A DNA stretch of 64,000 bases, from contig NC_134028.1 of the NCBI RefSeq assembly GCF_964204645.1, forward strand, positions 9,238,001 through 9,302,000. Direction: 5' to 3'. The notes beneath the pieces are model-generated. The model was given only the letters and a program-made list of their open reading frames with translations. It was not told where the DNA came from and did not search any database. Positions 1 through 62,162 of this stretch are shown here, piece by piece (within the stretch, counting starts at the first letter, position 1; each line of letters starts with the position of its first letter). The position numbers were made by a program, and so were the translations under genes. The stretch comes from Tubulanus polymorphus (taxonomy: Eukaryota; Animalia; Nemertea).

Positions 1-359
1 TTATTCGCCAGCAAAGATTCGGATGAGCGGGCCCGCGCATGAAGCATCGTTTTTCCACGTGCTGCCAATTTCTAGTCTATCAATTCGCAGAATGCGCATA
101 TGCATATTCGCATAATCCGAGTTAGTAACTCAGAGTAAAGAATAGTTTTGTAAAGTTTTTTCATCTTTCGGATACGGTGAGTAACTAAAACGAAAATGAT
201 TTTGATTTTATTCGTTCATGTTTCGGATATGCCGAGTTAAATGCTCAGAGTGAAATAATTTGATTTTGTTTTAGCTGTAACTCCAAGTACCATCCCGTGA
301 AAAGGTCGATAAAGAAAACATCTTTCATTATAGAATCGTTGTTGAAATGGTTTTATAAT

Positions 360-715
360 AGTAATAGGGGTAATAGGCTTTCATACCAAAGGTCGAGAGG
401 TCGAGAAAGTAAAAAAATAAATTCTCGCACACTCGAATTTATTTTTTATTTTTACTCACTCGCCCCTTCAACCTTTGATATGAAAGCCTATTAACCCTAT
501 TACTCTTAAAATAATCATATACATGAATAACATTTAAATTGACGGATTATTCAATATAAAAGTGTGAGCTCTTATAGAATAGATATATAGATATATTTTA
601 AACATTATTTCAATATTTATATTTGTATGAGTTAGATTTTTAAACATTAAAAGTGTTAGTAAAGTGTGATTGAAATAATACATGATATAAATCATTGTAC
701 TTCTAAAATCAATTT
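360..715 (+). repeat. Left terminal inverted repeat of the Polinton
   Basis: Reverse complement of 17722-18083 with a few substitutions and small indels. Confidence 0.95.
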
Positions 716-737
716 TAAAAAAAAATTTGATATTAAA

Positions 738-3700
738 ATGGAAGCAAATAAGTACTACTGCCCAACATGTAATATCAATATAGATAAATCCCAAAAATCA
801 AGACACAATAAAACTAAAACACATTTAGAGAATAAATTGAAACTAGAAAATAAAGATGATATATTAGAATCTAAATTAGATGAATTAAAGAATGAAAAAG
901 AAACATATAAATGTGATACATGTAATCAATCATTCAGTGATAAAAGATATTATAAAGAACATTTAAAATCTAAAAGTCATATTAGAAATAAGAATAATGA
1001 TATTTTAGGTGAAGATTATTTTGATAAAGATAATGATAAGAAACAGAAGACAATTAAAACCATAAAAAATAAATTAAACAATAAAAGACCATACATGGAA
1101 GATGTAAGAAATTATATTAATTCATTGGATAATAAAAAAGATATAGAGATAACCGAAGCATTTAAAAGTGATATTGGCCCAGCAGCTATCGAGTTTAAAT
1201 TTCATAAAGGAAAAACATTAGAAGAAAATAAAAAACATTTAGAAAATATGAAAGAAATAATAAAAATAATAACTGATGTTGAATATCCTAAAATTAGTAT
1301 ATCTTCTAAAGTAAAGTTTATAAAATCTGAAGATAAACCAATATATAATATAAATTCTCATTCACAACATATTATATCTAAACAACATATAGATGATAAA
1401 TTAGATTAATGTTATAATGAATTAAAAAATAATATAGAAGAGAAATATTTTGAAGGATCAGGTTTGATATTTGATGAGATAATATTTATGACTTTACATG
1501 TTTATAACACAAAATATAATAAGTTAACTAAATCAAAACCAATTGATGAAAATAATGTATCATATTATAAAGAACCAGATATTGAAGCATCGAGTTATAT
1601 TAAACTACCATTTAAAACTAATGCTGTAATAAATGTACAAAATGAAGATGATAAATGTTTTCTATGGACAATGATAAGTTGTTTACATCCAACAGAAGAT
1701 ATTACACATAGTTTTAGATTAACTCATTATAAACCATTTGAAAATGATTATAAGATAGATAAGTATCCTGTTAGAATTAAAAACACCCCAAAGATAGAAA
1801 GAGATAATAATATAAAGATAAATGTATTTAATTTAATCAAATTACCAAATACAAAAGGTAACAACATAAAACATTATACATTAGAACCTTTATATCTATC
1901 AAAAGATTATGATTCAAATGATGTTATAGATATACTATATTATGACAATCATTATACGTGGATTAAACAAATCGATTTATTTTTTAAATCAGAAAATGAT
2001 CACCATAATAAAATATATCTATGTAGAAAATGTTTACATAAATTCAGTAATGAAAGTACATTATTAAATCATAAACAATTATGTGAAAATCATGATTATT
2101 GTAAATTAGTTTTACCAAATGAAAAAGATAAAATATTAGAATTCAAAAAATATGATTACAAAAATAAAGTACCATTTGTTATATATGGAGATTTTGAATC
2201 ATTAAATAAAGAATTAACTGATCAAGATAGAAAAGAAATATATTATAAAAGAAAGAAATTAAATTCTAATGAAAATGATTTTTCAGATGAACCACCAAAA
2301 ACAAATACAATTAAAAAGATTCATCAATCAGCTGCAGCTTTCGGGTTATATATTAAATCTGATTATCCAGAACTAATTGAAAGTGAATATTATGATTATA
2401 GAAATGAAAATGTTATCAAACATTTTTGTGACTTATTAATTGAATATGAAATAAGATTTAGTAAATTATTGAATACAAATATAGAAATTATAATGACAGA
2501 AGAAGATAAAGAAGAATTTGCGTTTGCAGATAAATGTTATTATTGTGAAAAGATATTTAATTATAAAGATAAAAAAGTAAGAGACCATGATCATTTGAAT
2601 GGAAAGTTTAGAGGCGCCGCACATGAGAATTTTAACTTACAAGCTAAGAAAATTAACTTTGTACCAGTTATATTTCATCATCTATCAGGATATGATGCAC
2701 ATTTATTCATCAAACAGTTATGTCATAAAATAGAAGAAATTAATAATGAAATAGAAAGATTAAATTCAAATAGATCAAAAGATAAAATACCAACTTATAA
2801 ATTTAGAATGTTAGCTAAAACATCTGAGAATTATATATCATTCCAATTTGGTTGCCTAAGATTTATAGATTCATATAGATTTTTAAACAGTTCATTAGAT
2901 AACTTATCAAAATCATTAGTTGATGATGAATTAAAGATATTAAAACAACATTATCAAAATAATGATGATTTTCAATTAATGAGATATAAAGGCGCAATTC
3001 CATATTCATTTTATAAATCACATAATGATTTTAATATAACTGAATTATTAAAAGAACAATTCTATGATGAATTAAAAAATGAATATGTTAAAGATGAAGT
3101 ATATAATAGAACATTGAATATTTGGAATCATTTTGGAATGAAAAATCATGGACAATTAGTAGATTTATATCTAAAATCAGATGTATTATTATTAACTGAT
3201 ATATTCGAAAGGTTTAGAGATGTAAACCTAAAATATTTTAACATTGATCCATGTCATTGTTATTCATCACCAGGATTAACATGGGATTGTGGATTAAAAT
3301 TTACAGATATAAAAATGGATTTGTTAACAAATATAGATCAATTATTATTATTTGAAAAATCTATAAGAGGAGGAGTTTCAGGTGTATTAGGTGATAGATA
3401 TTTCAATGTAAATAATAACCCTGGATATGAGTTATTATATATAGATGCAATTAATTTGTATGGTTGGGCAATGATGGAACCACAACCTTATGGAGTATTT
3501 GAATTAACTGATGTTTTACAGAATGAAAATAATGATAAATTTGATGGGAAGAAAAGAATTCTAGATATTGCAGATGATTCAGATACTGGTTACTTTTTTG
3601 TTGTAGTCTTGGAATATCCTGAACATATTTAATTTAAATCTAGAAATCTAGCTTACTGAACATAAAACTGTAACTCATGAAGAATTATCAAATTACCAAA

Positions 3701-4773
3701 AAAGAATTAAACCCGAAAATCATATTCATACAGAAAAGTTAATGGTAACTCAAGAAGATAAATATAATTATGTAGTACATTATAGAATGTTAAAGTTTTA
3801 TCTAAAACAAGGAATGGTTCTAAAAAAGTACACAGATATATTTCATTCAGTCAATCTAAGTGGTTAGAAAAATATATAGATTTTAACACTAAACAGAGAA
3901 CTGAAGCTAAAACTGATTTCGAGAAACATTTCTTCAAGTTAATGAATAATGCATTCTATGGTAAGACTCGTGAAAATATTAGAAATAGAAATGATATTGA
4001 GTTAGTTAGTAATGGTAAAAGAATTAGACATTTACAATCATATCCTAAGTTCATTGGTAACAGAATATTTGATGAAAATTTAGCCGCAGTTAAGATGAGA
4101 AGAACTTCTATGAAATTTAATAAACCAATCTATGTTGGCGCTTCAGTTTTAGAATTATCAAAATTACTAATGTATGAATTCTATTATAATGTATTACAAC
4201 CACTTTTTGGAGAAAAACATATAGAAATATTATATTTTGATACTGACAGTTACATATTAAAGATAAAAACTGATAACATAACTGATGATTTAAAAACATT
4301 AAAACATCATTTTGATTTCAGTAATTATCCTAAAGAACATGAATTGTTTAGCAATGATAATAAAAAAAGTTCCCGGTAAATTCAAAGATGAATTAGGTGG
4401 TGAAGAAATGATTGAATTCATAGGTATTAGATCTAAAATGCATTCATATAAAACTAAAGAACATGAAGCTAAAAAGTTAAAAGGAATAACCAAAAGTGTA
4501 GTAGAAAAGAATATTCATTTCAAAGATTACATCAATTGTATATTCAATGAAGAAGTTAGAAAACATAAGATGAGATGTTTAAGATCTGAAGATCATGAAA
4601 TTTTTATTGAAGAAATTGAAAAGATAAGTCTAAACCCATTTGATGATAAAAGATATATTTTAGATGATGGAATTCATACAGTTGCTTATGGTTGTAATTT
4701 AGATGAATACTTAAAATCTAAAAGAGAAGAAACAAAAGAGAACGAGATAATGAAAAGAATTCTAACGTGTTAA
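738..4773 (+). pseudogene. Protein-primed family B DNA polymerase (pPolB, group-2 type with embedded endonuclease VII/HNH-like domain), disrupted
   Basis: N-terminal C2H2-type fingers; reading through TAA 1407 gives FEGSG; NEDDKCFLW; ExoI YGDFE; CYYC..VRDHDH.NGKFRGAAH; motif A IDAINLYG, motif B MNNAFYGK, motif C YFDTDS; PGKFKDE; LNPFDDKRY. Stops at 1407 and 3630, further lesions at ~3650-3830 and a frameshift at ~4365. Confidence 0.95.
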
Positions 4774-4802
4774 TCAAATTTTAATAAAAATATGTTATTA
4801 AA

Positions 4803-5156
4803 ATGGAGAGTAAACAAACACACAGTGAGAACAACAAATTATTTCTAGATAGAATAAAAGATATCACAAATGTAAAATCTGTAGATTATAAATTCAAAAG
4901 GTTAACAGAATTAACAATTCATAAGAAATATCTAATTACAAATATTGTTACAGTTACTAATAACTATGGAGATAAATTAGTTATACACTTAGAACATGAA
5001 GGATTAAAAGGAAATACATATAAATTCAGAACATATTTACCGGATAGATTTCATAGATTATCAAGTGAAGATCTAGAAGAATTATGTTCAGGTGATTTCT
5101 ATTTCATATATAAGGGTAAGAATGAAAAAGGGCACCATGAAATAGATTTTGAATAA
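4803..5156 (+). CDS. Polinton hypothetical protein (117 aa)
   Basis: Intact ORF directly after pPolB, TAAAATG start. Confidence 0.7.
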   Translation: MESKQTHSENNKLFLDRIKDITNVKSVDYKFKRLTELTIHKKYLITNIVTVTNNYGDKLVIHLEHEGLKGNTYKFRTYLPDRFHRLSSEDLEELCSGDFYFIYKGKNEKGHHEIDFE

Positions 5157-5170
5157 AATATGTAAAATAA

Positions 5171-5928
5171 ATGGTAGAATTAAAAGAATACAGAATATTT
5201 GTTGATTCAAGAAAACTTACAAATTATAAATCTCATAATTTACTAGTACAATTAGAGAGAGAATTTAAAAATTGTGTAGATTTGAAATTAGTAAATGTAA
5301 GTTTATGTAATTCTTTTTACAATATATCGAATAAAACTATTGAAGATAATACTTTTTAATTCATATTAGAAATGTAAATAAATGGTTTCATCTATTTTTA
5401 AAACCAGGATTATATAATTCAGATACATTAGCTCAAGAAATTAATAGAAGAGCACGGTTGAAAATTAGAAGTGAAGATAAATTTATAATTAGATTTATAA
5501 AAAGTGATAGCACAAATAAAATTAAAATAAAGTTACATGATGAAAGTCAACACGCATTTATGGTAAAAAAACCTATAGCTAAACTGTTAGGAATTGTACC
5601 AGATACTATTACAGGAAACGTAGATGGTAATTCAAATTTAATGACTTTTACACACTTTTATATTTATTGCAATTTAATCGAGCCTACAAAAACTTTCGAA
5701 GCAACTAAAGAAACAATTTGTAGTTCTAGTATACTAAATATTTTACCGCTAAAAAATGTTAAACAATTTGGAACTCAAATAAATTATAATTTAGCTGAAT
5801 GTGATTTTAAACCTTGTATTCCACATTTCAATAATTTTAAATTAGAAATAAGAAATCATAATGGTTATTTAATTGATTTGAATAACTTTCCTGTGATATA
5901 TGAATTAGTTATAAGATGTAGAGAGTAA
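5171..5928 (+). pseudogene. Minor capsid protein (penton-like, single jelly-roll), disrupted
   Basis: N-term IFVDSRK..SLCNSFYNIS and C-term FYIYCNLIE..ILNILP..FKLEIRNHNGYLIDLNNFPVIYELVIR resemble Polinton/PLV pentons; break near 5357. Confidence 0.75.
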
Positions 5929-5944
5929 TTTTTTCATTATATAA

Positions 5945-6286
5945 ATGAATATAACTGTTGGACCGAGTATATGTTTTGGGTTTGATTTTAAATGTGAGAA
6001 AGAAATTTAATTTAACATTAATGATGTAATTACACATATTAAAAATATTGCATTTTCTAATGAAACAACATTTGAGTACGAAACAACAATAGATAAAGAA
6101 ACTTAAAATTTAAAAAAGATTACTAATTTAATTAGAGAATCTTTAAGATTTTATGAATTAGATGAAGATTTTATCATCGATGATATTAAAAAAAATAATA
6201 ATTGAAATATATACAAATGAAACTAGTAATGAAATAAATGTTGAATTAATCATCACTAAGATAACTAAATATTTTGATGATAGTAA
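5945..6286 (+). pseudogene. Degenerate small Polinton ORF
   Basis: TAAATG start at 5945 followed by coding-like sequence with several stops. Confidence 0.4.
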
Positions 6287-6302
6287 TTTTTTTGATAAAT
6301 AA

Positions 6303-6524
6303 ATGAGTGATAATAAGTGGATAATAACTGGATTATATAATGGAGCATTACTATCAGTTGGAACTGTTGGTTATTCAATGGTATTAAAAAAAGTATTCAA
6401 AATGGGAAGTGTTACTGTTGAAAGATTTGATATCAATGATATTTTAAAATTAACATTAGCAGTAACTTTATCTAATTTAACTATTGATTATTTAGAAAAA
6501 CAAAAATATATTCTTCCCATATAA
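6303..6524 (+). CDS. Small hydrophobic (membrane) protein, 73 aa
   Basis: Intact ORF, TAAATG start, two hydrophobic segments. Confidence 0.7.
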   Translation: MSDNKWIITGLYNGALLSVGTVGYSMVLKKVFKMGSVTVERFDINDILKLTLAVTLSNLTIDYLEKQKYILPI

Positions 6525-6548
6525 ATACATAATTATTTTACTAAATAA

Positions 6549-6971
6549 ATGGCTTCTGCAGTTATAACTATTATAGGATCGGCAATTGTTAACGCTTTAG
6601 CATTTACTAGTGGCGGTTATTTATTTAAGCATATTGATAAAAATGGATCATTAACAGAACAAAAAAGGCATAACTTAGCATTAGAGAAATACAATAAAGC
6701 AGCAGAAGAATATAGAGAAAAGAGACAAAACTATATGGATTATATTAACAAGGAATTATATGATCAGAAGATTTCACATAGAGATTTTCAATCAGTCGAT
6801 GATGCAATGAGTTTATATAACGCGGTAAACAATAAAGAAAAATTACATCTATACAAACCTAAATTATCAGATTATTATACCTCAAGTAATGAACAGAAGA
6901 AATATGAAATAATTTGGATTTTAGGTGGAACAGTTATTGTTATATTTGTTGCTTATAAGTTTACTAATTAG
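6549..6971 (+). CDS. Membrane protein with coiled-coil, 140 aa
   Basis: Hydrophobic N-term (AVITIIGSAIVNALAF), coiled-coil EQKRHNLALEKY, C-terminal TM (IIWILGGTVIVIFVAY). Confidence 0.75.
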   Translation: MASAVITIIGSAIVNALAFTSGGYLFKHIDKNGSLTEQKRHNLALEKYNKAAEEYREKRQNYMDYINKELYDQKISHRDFQSVDDAMSLYNAVNNKEKLHLYKPKLSDYYTSSNEQKKYEIIWILGGTVIVIFVAYKFTN

Positions 6972-6990
6972 TAATTTTTTTGCTAAATAA

Positions 6991-7434
6991 ATGGAAGATA
7001 AAGTTGATAATATTGATATTATTCCTCATGATATAAATTAAACTAAATTAAAAATATATTTAGAAAAACAAATATTAGAATTTGAAAGTGACTTAAAAGT
7101 TAAAAAGAAAAAATATTTAAAAAGTAAAATTATATATTATTTGATTATAAGTGGTTCGGTTACAATGAGTTCTGTAATAACATTTCTAGCAATATTCAGT
7201 CCATTAACACCTTTAGCTATATCAATTGGTGTGTTAGGATTATCATCAAGTGTTTTAACTGGTATAAGTTCAAAATTAAATATAAAAAGTAATAAAGAAA
7301 AAATTAAAACTAATATAAAAGAAATTAATAAATTAAAGAATACACTAGATTATATAATAAGTTTAAATGGTCATATAACAGTTGAAGAACAAAATAAATT
7401 ATTAAAAAGAATTAATAAATTATTAATTTTTTAA
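6991..7434 (+). pseudogene. Membrane protein (coiled-coil, hydrophobic hairpin, coiled-coil) with an in-frame stop
   Basis: TAAATG at 6991 in frame with ORF 7141-7434, interrupted by TAA at ~7039; long hydrophobic stretch. Confidence 0.65.
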
Positions 7435-7442
7435 TTATATAA

Positions 7443-8835
7443 ATGGTAGATAGTTTTCCAAAAGCTTTCCAATATAATAAATCAATTAAATATAATATTC
7501 CAGCAATAGATTTTAATAAAGATATTTCATATAGAAATGAAGTTTTAAATTCATTAATTGATTTATATATTTATGTTACTGAAAGTAATAATTTTCATGT
7601 AAAGATGGAAAATATATTTCATGTGTATACAATTAATTTCAAAAATTCAAATGAGGCAAAACAATGGTTATTAAAATCTAATATGAAGTATTGGCAGAAC
7701 CAATTAAATTTTGCTGTTTATTGCGCAACAACAGGATGTGGAATTAGTTGGAATGATCATTTAAACAAACCAAGTTTACCATTGATGTTATCACTTTTTA
7801 GATTTCATACATATTTTCAAATAAAATTAATATTAGATGAATTAGAATGTCCTTTACCAGGTTCAAAATATTTTAAAGAATTGAATAATAATATTAATTT
7901 TTCTAAGTTTTATAAAATATGTAATGAATTTAATATTAATTCAAATAAAGATTTTAGAGCAAAAATTGGAACAATGGGTGGATTAGGAATATTATATACT
8001 AAAGAATTTGGAAAAATAATGACAAATTCAGATATAAGAACACTAAATTGGAATGAATTACCAAAATATTATGATAATATACAACAACCAAACAATAATG
8101 GTTGGGTTAATTTCATTTTAGAAAATGGTGAAGGTTTTACTAAAGCTGGAATACAAAGAATAAATCAATCAATTAGAACTTATTTGATATGTATTTTAGG
8201 TGCGCAAGTTGAAACAAGATCCCCAATAATTGGAAATGATAACACTTCATTCGATGCACAGAAACAATTCAAAGTATTATTTGAAGATTCAATTCATAAT
8301 GATAAAAATAGATCGATTCCAGAAAACATTGTAAGATATCAAAATTATTTAGATAAATCACATATTAGATTAAATTATTGTATAGGCCCTAATCTATTTA
8401 TTATTTCTAATGATTTAGTATTAAAGATGGGAAACATAATTGGTTACAATAATCTAATTAAAACTGCAACAATAAATAATTCATTTGGATTGAATTATAT
8501 AAATAAAAAGATTATTACTGCTCCAAAATTAATGGAAGGTGAAAAAAATAAAAACATATTCAATCAACTGAAACTAAAACTAATAATATTAAATTAAATA
8601 ATGATTCTAAAATAAAAGATTATAATACATCAGAAGATGGTGCCGTACGGCACCCACACGGTGATATAAAAACTGATAATGGTGCCGTATGGCACCCACA
8701 CGGTGATATAAAAACTGATATTATTCAACATGAAATAATTAAACTAAATGATGATAATAAATCCCATGAAAATACTAAATTAGCTATAACTTGTATAGGA
8801 ATTGTAATCGGAGGAATATTATATTTTAAATTTTA
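7443..8835 (+). pseudogene. Polinton hypothetical protein with C-terminal TM anchor, frameshifted near 8550
   Basis: 384-aa ORF (YWQNQLNFAVYCATTGCGISW) continues in another frame after an A-run to KLAITCIGIVIGGILYFKF-stop; 42-bp tandem duplication at ~8637-8720. Confidence 0.65.
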
Positions 8836-8846
8836 ATTTTTTTATT

Positions 8847-10286
8847 ATGTTAATGGCAGAAGGTGGAGAAGATATTCCAATGGATCCTTTAGATGAACCT
8901 GGTATAAGTGATGAACAACCACCTGATTTTAGTGAAACAAGTTTTAATGACGGTAATGAGCCAGGACGTAATTCAAATTTAACTACACCTGAATTTATTG
9001 ATAAAACACGTTCAAAGATAAGTATTGAAAATGAAGTACCAGAATTGGCAAAAAAATACGAATATGATGAAATTATTCATGATTTTAAACCAATATTAAA
9101 AAAATCTGGTTTCAATATAACAAATTAAGGTATGGATTATTTAGTAAAAGGTTTAAAATATTCAAATGGTGATTATCATTGGCATTTGAAAGATGACTAT
9201 TATTTTAAGATTTCTTCTAATAAAAGTCTCGATAAAATAATAACAAGACCAACTTTTATTAAATTAGAACAATCTAGAATTAAGAAAATCATTAATGATG
9301 TTTTAAATGATGTTACAGAACAAGAGATAACTTTAAATAGAAAACAATTTATTCGAAGAAATGATGATTTTTTGAAGATAATTAATGAAAATTTAAGACA
9401 AAAAAAAATTCCTAAAGAAGCTGATAATTCCAAAACTAGTAAACCTAATTCAAGAGAAGTTCAAACTAAAAAACTTTTACCAAATGGATTACTTGATGCA
9501 ACAGATCAAGAATTAGAAGATTTAATTAATATATTTTCTGTTGAAGCAATTAGAGAAATTAAAAGTATAAGACTTGCATCTGATAAAATTGCGCATGAAA
9601 AAAGTATAAGAGATATTGAAATGAGAAATTTAGAAAAAGAATTAACTGATAAAAATAAAGAAATAGAACAATTAAAGTCTGATTTAGACCATCAAGCAAT
9701 TGGTGAAATGGAATATAATCAAAAAGAATTACGTTTAGAAAAAGAAAAAGATGATTTAAAAGATAATTTAGAAGTACTGAAAGGCGAAAGAGATATATTA
9801 TTAAAATCATATGATTATAATATTAATAGATTAAAAGTTGTTGTTAAAGATTTGTTGATTAAACCAAATTCTGAAATATCATTGAAAGATAGAATAAAAT
9901 TATTATTTAAATTAGAAGGAATAACAATTCTTTCAACAATTCTAACTGCTGTAACTATGTTATTTACAACAATAGGTTTAGCAATATCAAGTGCTTTGAA
10001 ATCTACTCCTACTCCCAATAAACCAGATAAACCCCCGAATGATAATAATTCTATACAAGATAAAGTTAAGGATGGTTTAAAGAAATTAGCAAAATATTTA
10101 TGGGAACTATCTAAAAAATCTGCTGCAGCTTTACCAGGAATTATTGCATCAATTGTTGGTTTCATATTGAAATCTGCAGGAAACATTATTAACTTTGCTG
10201 CTGAACATATTATTTTATTTTTAATTACAGTTGTAAGTGCAATTATTTTTGGGTTAGTAAACATGATATCAAAAAATATCAAGTAA
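8847..10286 (+). pseudogene. Long coiled-coil protein with C-terminal hydrophobic/amphipathic helices, one in-frame stop (9126)
   Basis: ORFs 8847-9128 and 9132-10286 are in the same frame; E/K/L heptad region followed by hydrophobic helices. Confidence 0.7.
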
Positions 10287-10342
10287 ACAGGATAAAAAAT
10301 AAACATGATAAAAAATAAATAATTAATTTTTTTGTTAAATAA

Positions 10343-11315
10343 ATGAGTGGGAGTTATATCAATCCTTCTAAGAATCATAGAATATCTAATGCTATTAAAG
10401 CAGAAAGATCACATCATATAATTACTCATAACCCTTCTAATATTAATCCTGATGAAACTTTATATGTTAGAATCCCTCGATTAACACAAAATACTTTTTA
10501 TGTTCCAAATAGTATTTATTTATCAGCCGATATAAAAGTAACCGGTAATAATAATAATTATGTTGTTGATAATGTTGGAAGATATTTGATTAAAAAATTA
10601 ACTATAAAGATCGGTCCAGAAACAGTTTTCTCATTAGATGATTATAATTTATTTATGTATTATAAAGATTTATGGTTAACTAAAGAAAACAGAAATAATA
10701 TGATATTTCAAGGAATCCAATTAGAAAACCAAAATAAATTAAGATCAGGAGCTAATGACGCAATAGTAACTCGTACCGCAGATAATTTGATAAAAAAGAT
10801 TTATGGAAGCAAATATAAAATTCCATTAGACTTTGACTTGATAAATAATAATGCACCTTTATATAAATATGCAATTCAAGAAGACATTATATTAGAAATA
10901 ACATTTGCTCCTGTAAATGAAATTGTATTATCTAGCGTTGTTTTAAAAAGATATGGGTTATAAATTATCGAATATATATTTAGAATATGATACAGTAACT
11001 GATGAAAATATTTCAAGTATAATTCAAACTAAATACAATCAAGGATTTTCATTATTATATGATTATATTGATAAATTTAAAACCGTAACTATCAATGCAA
11101 ATGATGAAATTATTAATGAGAATATTAACTTCCCAAGAAGATCTATTAAAGGTATATTAATATTGTTTACCATTGCAACATATTCTAATGGTGCAATACA
11201 GGTTGATAAGTATTATAATCCTGAAATAACAAAAGTAGAAATAACTATCGAAGGAATAGCAAATAAAATATTTTTATATATTGTAAATTCTCAATTGAAT
11301 AGTGTTATGTATTAA
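10343..11315 (+). pseudogene. Major capsid protein (double jelly-roll, hexon-like), frameshifted and probably internally deleted
   Basis: IITHNPSNINPDETLYVRIP..VVDNVGRYLIKKL..YKDLW..IPLDF; frameshift ~10945 into YKLSNIYLEYD..RRSIKGILILF..YYNPEITKVEITIEG; short for an MCP; call rests on recalled family resemblance and gene position. Confidence 0.72.
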
Positions 11316-11347
11316 AATTTTAACTTTAATAAAAATTTATATAATAA

Positions 11348-12392
11348 ATGGAAGGTGGAATATATGAAATACAAACTCCAAGTGAAATGATATCAGATAT
11401 ATATTATATATTACCTTATGATGAATACATTAAGTATTTTGGAGATTACTTTAATCAATTCAAATATAGAATAAGTAAAATAAAAGATAATATTGAAACT
11501 AAAATAGAAAATAATATTGAAACTAAAATAGAAGATAAGAATGATATTGAATATAAAATAGAAGATAATATTGAAACTAAAATAGAAGATAGTAATAATA
11601 TTAAAACTAAAATAGAAGATGTAACAGCATCTACATCTTATAATATACCCTCTACATATGATATTGAATCAAAAAAAGATTATTATAATCCAAAATATTG
11701 TGATGTATGTAAGAAATATATATATCATATAAAAATTGGGCATCACATAAGAAATCAAAGAAACATATAGAAAAAGAAAAGAATAATAATGATAATAATA
11801 TATCAGTTAGTAATATAAAAGATAATGTTAACCCAATTGAAACTAATGATAACGATATAACAGATAATGAAATAATTGATGATTCTAAAAAACATTGTAA
11901 CATATGTAATTTAGATATTTCTAAAAGTAATTTTTCTAAACATAAAAAATCTAGGGGCACATAGAAAATGAAAAAGAATTAATATGTGATTATTGTAATA
12001 AAGAAATTGAACCTGTTGATAAAATTACTCATTATAAATAAAAATTACATCTAATTAATGTTTATAAAGATGTGGGTATGTTACCATTGTTAGATGAACC
12101 AAAAAAATATATCAAATATTTTAATCCTGAAACTAAACAATATTATATATTCTTTAAGTTGTTATTTGATAAATTATTAGCTTATGCAGAAGATAATCCT
12201 GACCAAATATATAAATTAGCGTATAATGGATACCTAGATTTATTTAATTTAATAAATGATTTTGAATTTGATTTTGATGGTGATAATTCATATGATTACT
12301 TTGAAAAATTAAGAATAAAAGCTGGATTAAGTGATGATGAACGTAGAATGAAGGGTGAAATAGAATTAATAAATATGCCAAAGACTTCCTGA
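11348..12392 (+). pseudogene. Zinc-finger/low-complexity protein, frameshifted
   Basis: NIETKIED tandem peptide repeats; CDVC..H, CNIC..H and CDYC..H fingers spread over different frames. Confidence 0.6.
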
Positions 12393-12549
12393 TGAATTTG
12401 ATATAAACAAAGATGATTTTATAAATGTATTAGAAACAAAATTAGAATAATTATTATAAAAATATTTATATATCTATAAAAATATTTATATATCTATGCA
12501 CTAGACGTATGAGTAAGAAAGTAAGAATCCAAGAATCCTTGCCAAGAAA

Positions 12550-12630
12550 TATAAATTATAAACATAAATTATAAACATAAATTATAAACATAAATTATAA
12601 ATATAAATTATAAACATAAATTATAAACAT
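12550..12630 (+). repeat. 13-bp minisatellite (ATAAATTATAAAC)n
   Basis: About six tandem copies. Confidence 0.85.
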
Positions 12631-12690
12631 AGTTTTAATATATGATTTATTCATTATTATATATTTCATTTAATAATTCATATTTCTATG

Positions 12691-12773
12691 TACTAGACGT
12701 ACGTAAGAATCCAAGATTCTTGCCAAGAAAGTAAAAAAGGTAAGAATTCTTGGATTCTTACGTACGTCTAGTA
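12691..12773. terminator. Hairpin at the convergence of the two Polinton gene blocks (putative bidirectional terminator)
   Basis: TACTAGACGTACGTAAGAATCCAAGA ... TCTTGGATTCTTACGTACGTCTAGTA, 26-bp perfect arms; the terminator role is inferred. Confidence 0.5.
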
Positions 12774-12789
12774 TATCCAAATTAGGATT

Positions 12790-13400
12790 TTATTTTATAA
12801 ATTTATATTCATAGGGAAATTGTAATCTCAGTAATAATTTTGAACCTTTATTATTCTTTAATTTATTCATATATTCATCATGTAATTCAGTAGGTATAAT
12901 TTGATTTTCTTCCAATGATTGTTGCATAGATTTTTTATCTTTGTTATAAAATTAAACTAGAAATCTTATATTCTCCCTAAAGTCTTTAACAATTGAATTA
13001 TATTTTTGATTTAAAACCCATGTTGTTATCCCAAAATTTCTCCCAGAGAAAGCTAAGTAACATAACTCACTTTCTCTCACTTTATAATCATATAAATTTG
13101 CGTAATCATCTACAATGAATAATGTATTTGATCCTTTATAGATATCAATTGCTATTTTAATACAATTATCTAAATTTTCTTTTACTGTTTTAGGATTTAA
13201 TATAATAAACTTTTTTATCTTAACTATGTCTCTATTATATGTTTTATTCATTTCATAAGTAGGAAAAATAATATTATATTATCAAAATGATTCTTATAAA
13301 TAGTTTCTAACAAATCTAATATGAAATGTGTTTTACCACAATTGGTTACTCCAGTTATTAACATATTATGCGGTTCAAATATAAATAAATCTTTATTCAT
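12790..13400 (-). pseudogene. A32/FtsK-HerA-type genome packaging ATPase, disrupted
   Basis: MNKDLFIFEPHNMLITGVTNCGKT (Walker A), TLFIVDD (Walker B), SGRNFGITTWVLNQKY..I.K.FREN; frameshift ~13265, stop at 12952. Confidence 0.9.
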
Positions 13401-14484
13401 TTATTCTTTTAATTTTACTAGATAAAATCCATTCATTAAAATTATCATCATATCCTTTATATTTCACCAAAGAATACTTTTTTCCTTTAAGAGTTTTTGT
13501 TTTCAATACGTTTTCTATTTTGTATTCTATTTCATCTGGATTTGGTACTAGTGATAATTCTTGTTCATAGAAATAACCTAATATTTCTTCATCTTTTAGA
13601 TCTTCTAATTTATAAACAAAAGGTTTAGTTAATATTATCTTTTTAATTTTAAATATTTCTCCTGTAAAATTAGGGGTATAACCTTTATAAAATGTTTTTC
13701 TATATTTAGATATTCTTACGTGTTGTCCTATTTCAAATTTAGGTTCTCCAAAATCATGTGTAACAAACGCACCATATAAATTATTCCAAACTATTTCCGA
13801 ATTATCTTCTTTTCTAGCTTGTTTAGGTTTCATATTTATAGAACTATGTTTAGAATTATCATAACCTTTCACTAAATCATCTAATACATCGATATATTTA
13901 TATGTTTCATTAGCAGTAAAATATTTCCACATTCTAGTTTTCAATGTTTTATTAAACCTTTCTATAATAGATGCTTTTTTATCTGAGTGTGTTGAAAAAT
14001 AATCTACATTGTTATCCGATAATAGTTTTTTAAAATGTTTGTTATAAAATTCCTTACCTTCATCAAATTGTATCTTATCTGGAATAGCTTCTTTAAATAT
14101 ATTCTTAAAAGCATTTGTTACTTCTATACCAGTTTTATTTTTGATTGGAATTGACCATGCGTATCTACTGAATATGTCTATAACATTTAATATCCAGAAA
14201 TATCCTTCATTGTATTCTTCTAAGTTCTTCATGTCAATTAAATCTGCTTGCCATTGTTGACGGATATATGAAACCATAACTTTTCTTGCTAAATAGTTTT
14301 TATCCATTTTCTCGTGGATTTGATATGTTGGTTGATTTTGTAACCATGATTTCAATTCACTATATTTTATATCACCATTTTCATTATCAGATTTCATTTT
14401 ATTCCATAATTCTGAAACGTTAAAATATGATACTTCACTCTCTGGGTTATAATATAACTCTCTTGAATATTGTTCTTTTTTCAT
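13393..14484 (-). CDS. Retroviral-type (rve, DDE) integrase with C-terminal chromodomain
   Basis: WQADLIDM, IDIFSRYAW, IQFDEGKEF, IIERFNKTLK; chromodomain YKIENVL..LVKYKGYDDNFNEWI; ORF intact; 6-bp TSD fits. Confidence 0.95.
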   Translation of the reverse strand: MKKEQYSRELYYNPESEVSYFNVSELWNKMKSDNENGDIKYSELKSWLQNQPTYQIHEKMDKNYLARKVMVSYIRQQWQADLIDMKNLEEYNEGYFWILNVIDIFSRYAWSIPIKNKTGIEVTNAFKNIFKEAIPDKIQFDEGKEFYNKHFKKLLSDNNVDYFSTHSDKKASIIERFNKTLKTRMWKYFTANETYKYIDVLDDLVKGYDNSKHSSINMKPKQARKEDNSEIVWNNLYGAFVTHDFGEPKFEIGQHVRISKYRKTFYKGYTPNFTGEIFKIKKIILTKPFVYKLEDLKDEEILGYFYEQELSLVPNPDEIEYKIENVLKTKTLKGKKYSLVKYKGYDDNFNEWILSSKIKRINE

Positions 14485-14490
14485 TCTATT

Positions 14491-14889
14491 TTAATCCATT
14501 AATAATAATTTAGATTTAGTTTCAATGGCTTTATGATTTGACTTATTTTCTGGTATAATAGGTTTATTGTCTGTACACGGATAACTAAGTTTCCGATCAT
14601 CATTGGAATCATCTTTATCATCAGATTTGAATTTTGATTTATATATTACACCAGATAATATAATAACTGTTACTAATCCAATTGTAATATATAAGTAAAT
14701 ATTGCTTCCAGCATTAGAAGAATTAGATGGATTATTATTTGAATCAATATCAGATAAAGTCTGTGACTCATTTATATCAGTTAATTTCTTTTTCTTAGCT
14801 TTTTTTAATTCTGAAGATCTTTTACCTAATTCTCTTGCCCATTTAATTTGTTTCTCGGATCTAGCCTTTTTCTTAACTCCATCACTCAT
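14491..14889 (-). CDS. Basic N-terminus single-TM protein, 132 aa
   Basis: Intact ORF, TAAATG start, TM IYLYITIGLVTVIILSGVIY. Confidence 0.65.
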   Translation of the reverse strand: MSDGVKKKARSEKQIKWARELGKRSSELKKAKKKKLTDINESQTLSDIDSNNNPSNSSNAGSNIYLYITIGLVTVIILSGVIYKSKFKSDDKDDSNDDRKLSYPCTDNKPIIPENKSNHKAIETKSKLLLMD

Positions 14890-15493
14890 TTATTTTAGTT
14901 AATTTTTGTTCTGATTCATTTTCTGTTTCGACGACGTTTGGTTGTAGTACATCTGTTTCGTTCTTACCTGATTTATATTCCATAGGATTGATATTCGAAA
15001 ATGTTATGACACCAGTAGAAATTAATGTCATAACCGATCCTAATTGAAATGAAGCATAACCAACCCATTTTTGTAATTCAGTCATAACTAAGTAGTCATT
15101 TTTCAAATCACTATATAATTTATTTTCATCATTAATTGGTATTAACTGGTTACATAATTTTGAATAACATTTGATAATACCATCACTTATAGAGTCGTTT
15201 ATTCTAGCTAATCTAGCTTCTTCATAAATCTTAAAATATTTTATTACTTTGTCTGGTTTCATAGCATCTAATTCTTGAAAAGTAATAATTCTATTTAAAA
15301 ACTCTTTAGATTTTCCACCAGCAATTAATAATTCAAGATGGTGTTTACAATATAAGTAGTATTCATAATCTATATTGTTATTAACTTGAATATTATTTTC
15401 AATTTTGGTTGGAATATCCTTATTATCACTAATGCCCAAATCATCTAATGTCTTTTCAATATCAATACTATTCTTACTCGATTTCTTTGACAT
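14882..15493 (-). CDS. Polinton hypothetical protein, 203 aa
   Basis: Intact ORF, TAAATG start, overlaps the next gene start. Confidence 0.7.
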   Translation of the reverse strand: MSKKSSKNSIDIEKTLDDLGISDNKDIPTKIENNIQVNNNIDYEYYLYCKHHLELLIAGGKSKEFLNRIITFQELDAMKPDKVIKYFKIYEEARLARINDSISDGIIKCYSKLCNQLIPINDENKLYSDLKNDYLVMTELQKWVGYASFQLGSVMTLISTGVITFSNINPMEYKSGKNETDVLQPNVVETENESEQKLTKINE

Positions 15494-15853
15494 TTATATT
15501 AGAGAAATTTAATAAGAAAAATATTATAAGTATTATAAAATGATACCAGTATCTCTTTAGATTAATACTAGCTTAGTAAAAGGTAAAGAATTTTAGTATT
15601 AGTTATTGTTTTTTAAGTAATTTTTATTTGTGATGTAAAGTATTCTTTTTGAAAAGAAAATATTAAAAAAACAATAACTAATACTAGCTAGTTGAAGATA
15701 TGTAATTTTTAATATATTTTATTTGAATTCTATTTGATATCTCACTACTTTTGTTTATCTATTAGGAGCAGTAATTATAACTGTCCAGATAAGTCATTTC
15801 GGATCCTTGATATCAAATTCCTCAACGTATTGTTCATTATTTGGATCATTGTA

Positions 15854-16009
15854 TCATTGATCAATAAATTTCTTTGCCTTTGTTAACTGTTCTAAATATA
15901 ACTGTAAATCAAGTTTATTAGATTTAATTATGTTTTCCTTCTTTTCTAAAGGTCTTAAATTTTTCCAATTCCAAACAAGTTTTTTATTGTATTCATCATT
16001 CCTTTCCAT
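15854..16009 (-). CDS. 51-aa ORF resembling the C-terminal part of large-DNA-virus HNH/endonuclease VII-like proteins
   Basis: MERNDEYNKKLVWNWKNLRPLEKKENIIKSNK; TAAATG start; below the ORF-track length cutoff. Confidence 0.45.
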   Translation of the reverse strand: MERNDEYNKKLVWNWKNLRPLEKKENIIKSNKLDLQLYLEQLTKAKKFIDQ

Positions 16010-16216
16010 TTATAAATCAAATTTTTATTAAAATTGATTAACATTTTAGAATCCTCGTCCATTTCTTCGACTAACGTCATCCTTTTTTATTCCTCGCTGC
16101 TTTTGATAAGTCATTTCGGATCCTCGATAATGAATCCTCAACTGAAAATCAATTCAACGAAACGACTGGTGGAATTACTATTTCATAAACACATATATTT
16201 ATTATGTAAATTTTAG

Positions 16217-16560
16217 CGATCGATAATAGAACAATGGAGAACAATAGAAAAGCGGTCCAATCGGACCGGTTATTGCGCAATACACAGTTATATTTTTATT
16301 CTGTAAACTACAACATTCAAACATAGAACTGTAACCAATCAATATTGAGCAGCTGTTTCCGTCAACAACGATCAATAATAGAACAATGGAGAACAATAGA
16401 AAAGCGGTCCAATCGTACCGGTTATTGCGCAATACTTAGTTAACAGTAAACAATCAATACAGAACAACCGCCGACATTAACAACGATCAATAATAGAACA
16501 ATGGAGAACAATAGAAAAGCGGTCCAATCGGACCGGTTATTGCGCAATACACAGTTAACA
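16217..16560 (+). repeat. Three copies of a ~75-bp unit inside the Polinton, candidate enhancer
   Basis: Unit core AGAACAATGGAGAACAATAGAAAAGCGGTCCAATCGGACCGGTTATTGCGCAATAC; units start at ~16217, ~16365, ~16480. Confidence 0.85.
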
Positions 16561-16638
16561 GTAATCAATACAATATTAAAACAGATACATACAATCGAGA
16601 TTACATTTTTTGATATCTAAGACCTTCAGTGTTATAAT

Positions 16639-17107
16639 TTATAATTTTGTCCAGAATTCTTTAATTACTGGATTGTTTCCAATCATTTCTTCAATTTCTG
16701 GTAAATATCCGATTACTTCACTAAATGCTAATCCTAATATTTTGAATTTTTCATATTTTATTAATCTACCTACTCTTCTCAGTTTTCTTTCAAAACCGGC
16801 ACTGATATCTCCACTCGTTTTCTTAGTTTTCGATTCTTTGAGTCCCAACAGCAATTTAAAGTCGCGTTGCTGGTAATTTTGGTAATTGTAGTTCGCGCGG
16901 TAATTGTTTATTATGTATTATATCACTCAGAATTTTCACCATTTCTTGATGATAGTCCAAAAGTTCTTGTAATTTTTGTGAAGTTTGTTCGTTAATTACG
17001 AGAGTTTCATCCTCCATTTCTATTGATTCCTGAGTTTCACTATCCAGCAGCAATCGTTCCTCACCCGTTGGTTGGCTTAGAATTTCTGGTTGATCTTTGT
17101 GTTCCAT
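16639..17107 (-). pseudogene. Hypothetical protein(s), probably one frameshifted gene
   Basis: Abutting ORFs 16856-17107 and 16639-16854; TAAAATG start at 17107. Confidence 0.45.
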
Positions 17108-17721
17108 TTTAATCTAAAAGACGTCGTGAAAATGAATTACTGTACTTAAATATGTTTAAAGGTTTCCCTACTTCATAATAACTACAAAAACGGTACTTAC
17201 ATTTAGATTTAGAACTGTAAACTGTGTTTTGAGAGAGAATATCCAATACGTACTATGTATGTGAAAGTTGATTTCTAACTGCCGACGTGGAGCACGTTCG
17301 ACCAAACTAATTATTTCTGCACGTTTGCCTGGATTGTAACAGATGTTCTTTATGATGAAGTTTATTAATTCTTTAGAATTGAAAACACGATATATTTGGC
17401 AACATATGTTTTAGTAGTAAACAAGAGCTATGTATTATATACATACAAAGCTCAAATAGAATTGCCAGCTTTCTAACCACTGATTAAAACCTCAGAATGC
17501 GGTTGATTCTGTGAAATACTATTCCATAATTCAACAAAGTTTTACAGCAATATTGAAAACCATCTTTGCTAATCTTACGCTAACTAAATTCTGTTAATGC
17601 TAATTTATCTAATTCACATTTAGAACAATTCTTGTAGTATATGTTTATGACGCCGGTGTTATTTGTAATATTGATAGTTTGTGGTTGTTCTGATTCCATT
17701 TATTATACATATTTTTTTACT

Positions 17722-18083
17722 AAATTGATTTTAGAAGTTCAATGATTTATATCATGTATTATTTCAATCACACTTTACTAACACTTTTAATGTTTAAAAA
17801 TCTAACTCATACAAATATAAATATTGAAATAATGTTTAAAATATATCTATATATCTATTCTATAAGAGCTCACACTTTTATATTGAATAATCTGTCAATT
17901 TAAATGTTATTCATGTATATGATTATTTTAAGAGTAATAGGGGTAATAGGCTTTCATAACAAAGGTTGAAGGGGCGAGTGAGTAAAAATAAAAAATAAAT
18001 TCGAGTGTGCGAGAATTTATTTTTTATTTTTTACTTTCTCCACCTCTCGACCTTTGGTATGAAAGCCTATTACCCCATTTACT
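17722..18083 (-). repeat. Right terminal inverted repeat of the Polinton
   Basis: Reverse complement of 360-715. Confidence 0.95.
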
Positions 18084-18177
18084 TATAATCTTAACCTGCG
18101 TAACTTATTGTTTGCCTATGCTTTCACAAACATTGAAAGTACGTATATTTGCCAACGGTTTTTTAATACAACTCGGT

Positions 18178-18799: not shown

Positions 18800-18918
18800 C
18801 CTGACAGTTTATGAAAATTAGCACAGACAATCGCGAGCGTTCCAAATCGATAAGTAAAAAATTCTATGACACTGTGTGGAACGGATTCTATACATTTTGT
18901 TGAGGTCCGCTATTGAAC

Positions 18919-19803
18919 ATGGACGATGCGGCGTATGCCTCCGCGTTGGACGCTTTCATGTTTTATCGTGGTGGACAAGCAGAGATGCAGAAACGTCTTT
19001 CGGACGCGTTACGGACTTGTTTCCACCAGGAAGGAAATGGACTGCGGGTTCTATCGATCGGGCCGGCGCGAGGTCATGCGTTGGAAGATGCAATATACAC
19101 AGTAGGTGAATATCTTAAGTTTGAGCGCGTGGACTGCGTGGAATGCAACAGTGCTATGATTGCTGAATTGAAAGAACGTATTGGTTTACTAGCTGCAAAC
19201 TATCGTTTTGATTTCACCGTTTATCATCGAAAATTCTCAGTCGAGGACGCGACCGCGGCTTCCTTCCTACCGAGTAACTTCTACGATTTAATCGTGTTCA
19301 ACCACGTGATGTATTATTTCGACGATCCTGGTCGTGTGATACACGAAGCCGTCTGTCGACTTACTCGAAATGGTGGCCACGCGTATGTATGTCTCAACGT
19401 CGTAAATACAGTCGGGAAGATGTGCGGCGAAATCGATCGTATTTTGCCAATGAGAGGAGAGAGGAAGGCGAAAGCCCCACGCCATCGTTGGAATCCGTTT
19501 GATATGCGAAAGATTCTGATCGATGCAAAAATGCGAATAGTTTTGGATTCTACCGATGAATATGGAATTGCATTACACAACGCTTTGAGACCAGCTCGAC
19601 CCTGTATCAGTGAACAGGATAGAGAAATGCGGAGACTCGCTGATTGCGTTTTATCATTTTACGCTCAAAGAGATGTCAGTGAATTAGCCGAGGAAGAACG
19701 CGCTCATATACAGAATGTCATCCGTCGACACACATATGAAACGTACGGGTTTTCTTTTGATAAACAAATAGTCGAAAGTTATTTGGTAGCTATTAGAGAA
19801 TGA
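18919..19803 (+). CDS. SAM-dependent methyltransferase, histamine N-methyltransferase-like, single exon
   Basis: Motif I LRVLSIGPARG, VDCVE, YDLIVFNHVMYYFDD, LTRNGG. Confidence 0.8.
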   Translation: MDDAAYASALDAFMFYRGGQAEMQKRLSDALRTCFHQEGNGLRVLSIGPARGHALEDAIYTVGEYLKFERVDCVECNSAMIAELKERIGLLAANYRFDFTVYHRKFSVEDATAASFLPSNFYDLIVFNHVMYYFDDPGRVIHEAVCRLTRNGGHAYVCLNVVNTVGKMCGEIDRILPMRGERKAKAPRHRWNPFDMRKILIDAKMRIVLDSTDEYGIALHNALRPARPCISEQDREMRRLADCVLSFYAQRDVSELAEEERAHIQNVIRRHTYETYGFSFDKQIVESYLVAIRE

Positions 19804-21385: not shown

Positions 21386-22641
21386 AAACTAGGGGTCCAG
21401 GGACACCATGCCCACTTGGGAAGTGGTTTAAAATGCTCAACAATCTAGCAATTTTAATATTCAACGCCCCCTGGTGACTATATAAAAAAAACAATGACCT
21501 TGAAACCCACCACAATCATAGAACATGTCAGCGGCTACAATTTTGTAATCGATTGTGATAACAAAATATGCCTCGTTACCAATTCAATATGGAAATACTA
21601 AGTAACTTTACTATTCATCGCCCCCTGGTGACATCCAAAACCCAATGATCTTGAAACTCTCCACATTCATAGAACATGTCATGAACTACAACTTTGCAAT
21701 TGATCATGATAACAAAATATGCCTAGGTACCAATCTAATAAGGAAATACTAAGTTATTCTACTATTCAACGCCCCCTGGTGACCATATAGAATAACTAAT
21801 GTCCTTAAAACTCACCACAATCATAGACGATGTCATAAGCTACAACTTTCCATTGATTGTGGTAACAAAATATACATAGGTACAAATATAATATAGAAAT
21901 ACTAAGTTATTGTATCATTCAACGCCCCTGGTGGCCATATACAAAAACCAATGACCTTGAAACTCACACGTTATGGGCTACAACTTTCCTTATTGATTGT
22001 AGTAACACAATATGCTTAGGTATCAATATAATGTGGAAAAACTTTTTCCCACCTACCAATGAGTACTGATGACACCAAGATGACCGCCAATTGCGTCATA
22101 ATTGGCTGATCAAATATACCTGTCTCAGGTATAAAACATCCCTTTCCAATGAATACCCACCACAAATTGCAATGAGAAATGGCAAACTAGTAGGAAGCTA
22201 CAGGACCCAGAATTCCGGCCAAAATTGACATTTTTGGGCACTAAAAAGGTCATAGGACGACCATCTTGAGTCCGATCGACCCAATTTTTTCTTATGCTGA
22301 TGGGCCCTTTGGGGATTAAAATATATATTAAAGATCAAGGTAATTAATCAAAGCGTCTTCAAAATTTCCCTCAAAAACTTCAAAAATGTGTAAAAAGTGC
22401 TGATTTTGGCGAACAACAATGGCTGCCAGTCGGCCATCTTGATTCTGACAGGGCCAGTTTTTGGGCTGAAGATGTGTCTAGGGTAGATACATGTGTAACC
22501 CAAATATCAAGACATTACATTGAAGCGTCATCAAAACTTCCCAAAATAACTGGATTCCGTCTACGGACGGAAGAACGGACGGACGACGGACGAAAAGTGA
22601 ACGCAATAGCCCGCTGGGACTAAAGTCCCAAGTGGGCTAAA
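21386..22641 (+). mobile_element. Helentron/DINE-like non-autonomous element with internal ~155-bp tandem repeats
   Basis: Starts AAACTAG; about four diverged core repeats (CAACGCCCCCTGGTGAC..GCTACAAC) at 21450-22040; GGAC microsatellite, hairpin TGGGACTAAAGTCCCA and GCTAAAA end; pieces of the 3' part recur at 23650-23897, 24340-24414 and 25297-25544. Confidence 0.6.
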
Positions 22642-25800: not shown

Positions 25801-26117
25801 CGTAATACATTCCTGAGTATATAAATTAACATCAGTAGACTGGTCAGTAGAAATACACCGGTGTATGTCAGCGAATGTGAGGAACCCTGAAAAAATAAAA
25901 GTAACATACCTCAGTAATAATGAGAGCCACAAGGGGCACTACGCCCAGCCTAGTTAGCTCCTTTCTCTTTTCAGAAGCAAGAGAGCTGGCAACTAAGATG
26001 GCCAATAGTCAGCCATCTTGAAACAGATCGGGCCCATCTTTGGGCTGAAGATGCGTCTAGGCAGGGGCGGATCTAGGGTCTGATTCAGGGAGGGATGAAC
26101 TCCCAAAATAGGGCACA
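22824..26117 (+). repeat. Tandem duplication, 2 x 1647 bp, apparently identical
   Basis: Identical ORF sets offset by 1647; junction at 24470/24471 with ACA microhomology. Confidence 0.95.

Positions 26118-48181: not shown

Positions 48182-62162
<13,981 letters not shown>

Follow-up and report, generated by a model that had tools for sequence, protein, structure and literature searches.

Mavericks, or Polintons, occur widely in animal genomes and raise the question of what turns on their genes and whether a helper virus is required. The described animal Mavericks and adintoviruses combine terminal inverted repeats (TIRs), a 6-bp target-site duplication (TSD), a protein-primed DNA polymerase B (pPolB), an rve integrase, a packaging ATPase and capsid proteins with many germ-line copies (PMC8502044). 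Neither 'promoter' nor 'helper' occurs in the main text of that paper. Here we analyse a 64,000-nucleotide stretch of DNA (NC_134028.1, positions 9,238,001 to 9,302,000; 'the window') from the nemertean, or ribbon worm, Tubulanus polymorphus. It holds a Polinton/Maverick of 17,724 bp and 24% GC (window positions 360–18083) with the features just listed, the capsid proteins being likely assignments. In comparison with adintoviruses, no adenain was found in the element, and most of the relatives sampled lack the sequence TAAATG that spans most start codons here.

Other small DNA genomes provide closer parallels for a dependence on large viruses. Polinton-like elements were found in entomopoxvirus occlusion bodies of insects, and one entomopoxvirus-associated Polinton-like virus (PLV) lineage branches with maverick-polintons (PMC11296320). 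Compared by description only, AHEV_PLV1/2 and CBEV_PLV1 resemble the present element as small Polinton-like genomes proposed as poxvirus parasites; they differ in their size (~12 kb) and, for AHEV_PLV1, in having no detected integrase. Neither promoters nor transcription are discussed anywhere in the main text of PMC11296320. Virophages carry the promoter motifs of their helpers, as does PLV Gezel-14T (bioRxiv 10.1101/2022.07.28.501842). The parallel with Mavirus, Sputnik and Gezel-14T is that of a small DNA virus with no RNA polymerase and with the promoter motif of a large virus. Those systems have protist hosts, mimivirus-family motifs and a helper in culture, whereas the present motif is of poxvirus type, occurs in an animal host and has no known helper. 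Mavirus integrates, and the yeast cytoplasmic linear plasmids pGKL1 and pGKL2 are not known to have a capsid or an integrase. The plasmids share with the element AT-rich, protein-primed linear DNA and a TAAA-type initiator at nearly every gene; unlike the element, they encode a pox-related polymerase and have an upstream element of the early type (PMC6211774). Helper-promoter mimicry is known; its poxvirus-type version across lineages of integrated animal Mavericks would be new. No report of poxvirus-type promoters in animal Polintons was found in the literature, most subscription papers and supplements lying outside that search.

A preliminary description of the window, made from the letters alone, proposed that the element's genes start in TAAATG, the motif of poxvirus late promoters. 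Exact TAAATG was confirmed at 13 starts, namely 5171, 5945, 6303, 6549, 6991, 7443, 10343 and 11348 on the forward strand and 13400, 14889, 15493, 16009 and 17699 on the reverse strand. The starts at 738, 4803 and 17107 read TAAAATG and do not have the motif in its strict form. Only the integrase (14484) and the gene at 8847 deviate, as had been stated; orthologues begin with TAAATG in L020 for the integrase and in L001, L003 and L004 for the 8847 gene. The two TIRs differ exactly at the TAAATG/TAAAATG point. Hence, the two forms interchange in one promoter. The T-tract said to precede many starts is present at part of them, but seven have an A-tract instead.

The motif is enriched against chance and against composition. 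TAAATG was found at 13/18 starts; of the element's remaining 687 ATGs, 35 have it (Fisher p = 8.5e-13). With TAAAATG allowed, the counts are 16/18 and 43/687. Against an AT-matched null, from the composition of the upstream 45 nt, the binomial p is 5e-11, and shuffled open reading frames (ORFs) give TAAATG at 6.4%. The 18 starts were listed by hand and comprise those of the preliminary description and that of the integrase. When the first ATG is taken mechanically, TAAATG is present at 10 of 31 element ORFs of at least 50 amino acids (aa), a rate diluted because fragments of broken genes are counted. In the host part of the window, the motif occurs at none of 43 ORFs of at least 60 aa, many of which are spurious.

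Because the window starts were hand-listed, we repeated the test on related loci without that choice. The loci were the best 80 of at least 404 confirmed in a metagenome scan with an alignment of PZ, a conserved protein of the element. A start was defined as the first ATG of an ORF homologous to a window gene, with an N-terminus aligning with a relative of <90% identity; 79 loci were usable. TAAATG was present at 20/22 such homology-anchored starts in the window's own clade (clade A, four loci) and at 31/32 in clade B (ten loci, 31–43% GC). Four further loci, a post-hoc set, have it at 6/7. The sum is 57/61 starts, at GC contents of up to 44%. Other loci have the motif at 5/232 starts, comprising 0/22 in nine AT-rich loci and 5/210 in 52 GC-rich loci. 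Two AT-rich loci, L016 and L017, have one TAAATG each, in a gene family outside the count. The clades are from a quick PZ tree with long branches (Shimodaira–Hasegawa-like approximate likelihood ratio test, SH-aLRT, 99 and 100). All of their members were counted, and the sets were drawn after the motif was seen. The PZ proteins of clade A share only ~40% identity with those of clade B. The motif takes two changes on capsid trees, from which nine near-duplicate rows were dropped and which include no virophage capsids; a single origin is neither shown nor rejected (approximately unbiased test, p-AU 0.48). Taken together, the TAAATG observation is real and general, and conservation of the motif extends over several lineages whatever their GC content. 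Its presence in distantly related elements, and not in others, makes the borrowing of a poxvirus-type helper polymerase likely.

These data bear on whether the motif is a by-product of AT-rich composition, of TAA-ATG stop-start coupling or of the upstream gene's poly(A) signal (AATAAA/ATTAAA). The idea draws on the low GC content of the element, on tandem gaps of 3–30 nt and on the AATAAA, ATTAAA or TATAAA contained in many starts. Composition does not account for the motif: AT-rich loci outside the clades lack it (L049, at 33% GC, has 0/8), whereas loci of 38–39% GC have it at 6/6 (L020) and 7/8 (L015, 39% GC) starts. The TAA is the stop codon of the upstream gene in only 2/57 cases. Ten divergent gene pairs of clade B, with ATGs 14–37 nt apart or overlapping by 22–37 nt, carry TAAATG at 20/20 starts, and the first genes inside the TIRs retain the motif as well; at none of these places does a same-strand gene end. 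Thus, retention of the motif in back-to-back pairs argues against stop-start coupling and poly(A) signals. We regard a by-product as very improbable, and this explanation is largely refuted. In L015, L020, L021, L033 and L039 the ATPase and PZ genes diverge from starts that overlap by 22 bases, and each promoter sits inside the other gene's coding sequence.

Loci without the motif have other start contexts. The AT-rich Polintons L006, L007 and L049 often have TATA-like bases directly before the ATG, which we take to recall asfarvirus late initiators. GC-rich L010, L012 and L025 have TCAAT or TCAGT ahead of the PZ start, presumably resembling an RNA polymerase II (Pol II) initiator. Differences in start context may reflect the use of different helpers, or of the host.

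The vaccinia late promoter has TAAAT, followed by G, across the start codon and a conserved T at the 10th base upstream. The intermediate promoter has TAAA, without that T and with A-rich upstream DNA (PMC11980589). TAAATG is also found at many conserved genes of salmon gill poxvirus (PMC4542343) and at a late gene of an entomopoxvirus (PMC3061580). The likeness between the element and vaccinia promoters (PMC11980589, PMC5294985) is one of DNA sequence. In clade A, T occupies the 10th base upstream at 33/39 TAAATG starts, compared with 32/87 non-start TAAATG (p = 4e-7, the orthologous starts not being independent). Among the window starts with TAAA, 9/16 have this T (major capsid, PZ, membrane proteins) and 7/16 have an A-tract (polymerase, single-stranded DNA (ssDNA)-binding lead, minor capsid, ATPase, cargo genes). 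The A-tract class resembles intermediate promoters, on weaker evidence than exists for the T-tract class. The packaging ATPase falls in the intermediate-like class, in agreement with the intermediate vaccinia A32 ATPase. Vaccinia polymerase and ssDNA-binding genes are early; the element's polymerase and ssDNA-binding lead are intermediate-like.

As the preliminary description recognised, T at −3 is a poor Kozak base. It is found at 57/61 starts of the motif lineages, while sister lineages hold a purine (167/232 starts of loci outside the motif sets). Translation context was rejected as the cause on these counts. A trans-splice acceptor was also rejected, since the T and A tracts do not end in AG. 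Reading TTTTTNT as an early terminator did not survive: coding strands are not depleted of it (6 seen, 8.3 expected). Hence, the T-tracts are better read as upstream promoter elements.

We lean towards transcription of the element's genes by the RNA polymerase of a co-infecting poxvirus-type virus, not by host Pol II. Helper dependence of some kind is likely. The motif is conserved, independent of GC content, retained in divergent pairs, hostile to the Kozak context at −3 and accompanied by the T of vaccinia late promoters. The promoter reading is thus strongly, but indirectly, supported. To this extent the earlier proposal of a helper polymerase stood; short gaps and TTTTTNT failed as arguments for it, and the analysis found no helper virus, no transcript end and, in the frames scanned, no gene derived from a poxvirus. 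A run that may be RNA contained almost nothing of the element, which does not bear on its expression.

In the cytoplasmic factory of the helper, element DNA would be transcribed by a poxvirus-type polymerase together with intermediate and late factors. For vaccinia, the intermediate and late stages are the only ones open to naked, or free, DNA in the virus factory. Initiation would fall within the AAA, and slippage of the polymerase there would put a poly(A) leader on the mRNA, which would then read A(n)-AUG. Slippage on AAA places poly(A) leaders on poxviral and yeast-plasmid mRNAs (PMC6211774). Such a leader would take the T at −3 out of the mRNA, which would explain the fixation of a Kozak-hostile base. 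Genes of the A-tract class (polymerase, ssDNA-binding lead, ATPase, likely minor capsid) would be expressed in the intermediate stage of the helper and those of the T-tract class (major capsid, membrane proteins) in its late stage, with replication genes first and capsid genes later. The integrase would keep copies in the host germ line. A wider proposal is tentative, and more doubtful than probable: whole animal Maverick lineages would be germ-line poxvirus virophages, with a two-stage intermediate/late programme, woken only by an infecting poxvirus-type virus, which they may limit.

Several observations weigh against a poxvirus-type helper. None was found in two IMG/VR motif scans, which gave at least 239 loci, and none of the loci listed comes near the almost complete TAAATG use of these elements; the top, L092, has it at 6/16 starts and the next, L090, which resembles a prasinovirus, at 4/19. 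Pfam searches for poxvirus polymerase and transcription genes found none in 24 element ORFs, in 19 ORFs of related loci or in 42 of the 120 further frames listed from TAAATG loci. No published poxvirus of nemerteans or their kin was found in literature searches. The T peak of clade B (94%) is shifted outward by one base. Three of the seven A-tract promoters are copies of one promoter, and orthologues do not always belong to the same class: a T-tract precedes the L003 counterpart of 4803. The major capsid is late-like, a mismatch with vaccinia D13, a capsid homologue, which is intermediate. At the deviating integrase start, other host copies differ just before the ATG and still do not have TAAATG. 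As the preliminary description held, the element has no RNA polymerase gene detectable by Pfam in the 24 ORFs scanned; an element-encoded polymerase or poxvirus transcription factor was rejected for the ORFs scanned. IMG/VR scans by capsid, PZ alignment, integrase, capsid alignment and polymerase gave no relative among the matches listed.

Another cytoplasmic polymerase could use the same initiator. It might belong to a non-pox large DNA virus, or to a resident pGKL2-type helper element with its own polymerase and capping enzyme. L092, a non-pox virus contig with an RNA polymerase gene, illustrates the former: several of its TAAATG starts follow T-tracts, and its polymerase subunit is closer to Pol II than to that of vaccinia (263 versus 96 bits). 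Partial use of TAAATG by such a virus means that the motif is not unique to poxviruses, a further point against a poxvirus-type helper. However, the enrichment in L092 is partial, and it is the best of at least 239 loci chosen for having one motif. The yeast linear plasmids illustrate the latter, with a TAAAN initiator, poly(A) leaders and a pox-related polymerase (PMC6211774), although that paper states that such transcription genes had not been reported in Polintons. The blank for poxviruses in the literature on the nemertean host group suits either version. Conversely, both the exact overlap of TAAATG with the start codon and the 10th-base T agree with the late consensus of vaccinia, and we consider another cytoplasmic polymerase unlikely. 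L092 itself is a large DNA virus fragment, not pox-like, with T-tract TAAATG starts among 6/16 ORFs; its RNA polymerase beta subunit seems, from sequence, to hold an intein.

Host Pol II might instead recognise an initiator that is specific to these lineages and lies at the start codon. An element protein, for example PZ, might direct it there, and the resemblance to poxvirus promoters would be convergence or a relic. The short intergenic gaps had been offered as too short for Pol II. They are real, but equally small gaps are found in related Polintons that lack the motif, with a median of 6 nt between tandem genes and often 8–50 nt between divergent ones. Thus, the gaps do not discriminate and are no proof against Pol II; the family copes with tiny gaps, and a poxvirus-type helper loses an argument. 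Adintovirus transcripts in cavefish tissues (PMC8502044) point the same way, and the element integrates in nuclear DNA at many sites. A role for PZ in transcription is possible: its structure model is confident (predicted local distance difference test, pLDDT, 86), and no significant fold match was found in three structure libraries (best Z 3.9). However, PZ occurs in lineages with and without the motif, so it alone cannot explain the motif. The prevalence of T at −3, a poor Kozak base, where sister lineages keep a purine also argues against Pol II. A TATA box at the ATG would make Pol II start transcription inside the gene. We therefore judge the Pol II explanation improbable, and continue to favour the polymerase of a poxvirus-type helper.

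The genes and boundaries of the element are collected in Table 1. The integrase has a Pfam match above cut-off (rve, PF00665, E 3e-9). For the ATPase, Pox_A32 (PF04665) is weak on both pieces, and above cut-off on the L003 orthologue (E 4.6e-11). The major capsid matches Capsid_N below cut-off (E 0.0017) and is 73% identical to the intact L003 protein. The pPolB pieces have no PolB match in Pfam, and their zinc-finger and endonuclease VII matches are below cut-off; the assignment is based on a homologue in L049 and on what we take to be polymerase motifs, visible by direct reading of the ORFs. For the ORF at 4803–5156, which adjoins the polymerase, the nearest named Atlas cluster is PF17427 (44% of members, score 0.84), a lead only. 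The product of 5171..5928 is likely the minor capsid protein, judging from its orthologue L003:565-1326, which matches small proteins of nucleocytoplasmic large DNA viruses (NCLDV)/Preplasmiviricota (template modelling score, TM, ~0.8; DUF5901 from Atlas neighbours). The element encodes several small membrane proteins.

Table 1. Features of the Tubulanus polymorphus Maverick in window coordinates
Position	Strand	Feature	Start and upstream tract	Related loci and remarks
354..359	.	left TSD, 6 bp TATAAT		identical 6-mer at 18084-18089
360..746	.	left TIR, begins AG		contains A-tract promoter and start of pPolB
738..4773	+	pPolB, N-terminal zinc fingers, at least 4 ORF pieces	TAAAATG, A-tract	
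4803..5156	+	117-aa ORF, candidate phi29-type ssDNA-binding protein	TAAAATG, A-tract	
5171..5928	+	likely minor capsid protein, two pieces	TAAATG, A-tract	
5945..6302	+	small acidic ORF, broken	TAAATG, T-tract	orthologues in L002-L004
6303..6524	+	73-aa hydrophobic protein	TAAATG, T-tract	homologues in 9 loci
6549..6971	+	140-aa protein, hydrophobic ends	TAAATG, T-tract	homologues in 15 loci
6991..7434	+	membrane protein, broken	TAAATG, T-tract	orthologues in L002, L003, L020
7443..8597	+	PZ, conserved protein	TAAATG, T-tract	307 homologues; shorter than orthologues
8847..10286	+	coiled-coil/membrane protein, two pieces	deviates, T-tract present	
10343..11315	+	major capsid protein, broken	TAAATG, T-tract	
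11348..12392	+	variable cargo ORF with repeats, broken	TAAATG, A-tract	
12952..13400	-	A32-type packaging ATPase, two pieces	TAAATG, A-tract	
13393..14484	-	rve integrase with chromodomain, open frame	not TAAATG	
14491..14889	-	132-aa basic/membrane protein	TAAATG	orthologue in L003
14882..15493	-	conserved 203-aa helical protein	TAAATG	homologues in 19 loci; all-helical model
15854..16009	-	short cargo ORF	TAAATG, A-tract	promoter like terminal-repeat promoter
16856..17107	-	cargo ORF, broken	TAAAATG	
17580..17699	-	cargo ORF fragment begun from right TIR	TAAATG, A-tract	
17691..18083	.	right TIR, ends CT		
18084..18089	.	right TSD, 6 bp TATAAT		

The protein at 7443–8597 is called PZ here. 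Its invariant residues are Gln87, Cys94, His122 and Asn149, and its model has several weak structural matches to papain-like or NlpC/P60 peptidases (Z ≤3.1). No Pfam match to an adenain-type maturation protease was found in any ORF scanned. Given this and the invariant Cys and His, PZ may be a divergent protease, a lead only. For the cargo ORF at 11348..12392, no homologue was found in the 80 related loci. The promoter of the cargo ORF at 15854..16009 is an inverted match to the TIR (714-758/15989-16033). In L003, a deoxynucleoside kinase (10340-10981, reverse strand; PF01712, E 1.7e-31) has a T-tract TAAATG start; poxvirus gene transfer through this kinase was rejected, none of its 22 matches being named viral.

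The hallmarks of Mavericks/Polintons are present: TIRs of ~390 bp with 5'-AG...CT-3' ends, a 6-bp TSD, pPolB, an rve integrase and an A32/FtsK-type packaging ATPase. The double jelly-roll major and single jelly-roll minor capsid proteins typical of the group have candidate counterparts in the element. The repeat arms are 96% identical over 412-746/17691-18025 and 92% identical over 360-421/18022-18083. Within each TIR lies an inner inverted repeat of ~69 bp with a spacer of 21–25 nt (353-511 and 17928-18088). In a DNA run with the same species label, 576 reads run off position 360 into mixed flanks, and read depth is mostly several hundred over the element compared with ~30 at 18851-19500. Hence, the element is multi-copy and integrated at many nuclear sites. 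The present copy is decayed. Most genes are broken, including polymerase, capsid and ATPase, while the integrase retains an open frame. At 12534-12789, where the two gene blocks converge, there is a tandem array of 13-bp units together with a 42-bp inverted repeat. The right end (15600-17720) is a variable cargo zone with 115-bp repeats at 16175-16556. Reads join 17717 to 16031, and 848 to 15909 on opposite strands; thus, other copies have other genes behind the terminal-repeat promoter.

Elsewhere in the window, host genes lie at 18919-19803, 44724-45383, 48182-48871 and 61554-62162. They comprise a single-ORF methyltransferase, a piece of a rhodopsin-family receptor and heparan sulfate 3-O-sulfotransferase exons; one host gene is a 100% match to a Tubulanus polymorphus protein. 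Host DNA also contains a satellite of 151 bp and a tandem duplication whose nearly identical copies are spaced 1647 bp apart (21451-22043, 22824-26071). A short reverse-strand ORF at 43314-43520 is presumably a Penelope-type reverse-transcriptase fragment.

The sharp, lineage-specific, poxvirus-type promoter makes the helper question testable in Mavericks. If whole Maverick lineages are indeed poxvirus virophages, start-codon context would be a helper barcode and would point to poxvirus-like viruses still to be discovered, in ribbon worms and elsewhere, including animal groups from which none has been described. Mavericks whose genes begin in other motifs would then depend on other helpers, or on the host. 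The virophage lifestyle, perhaps together with heritable antiviral defence, would extend from protists to animals.

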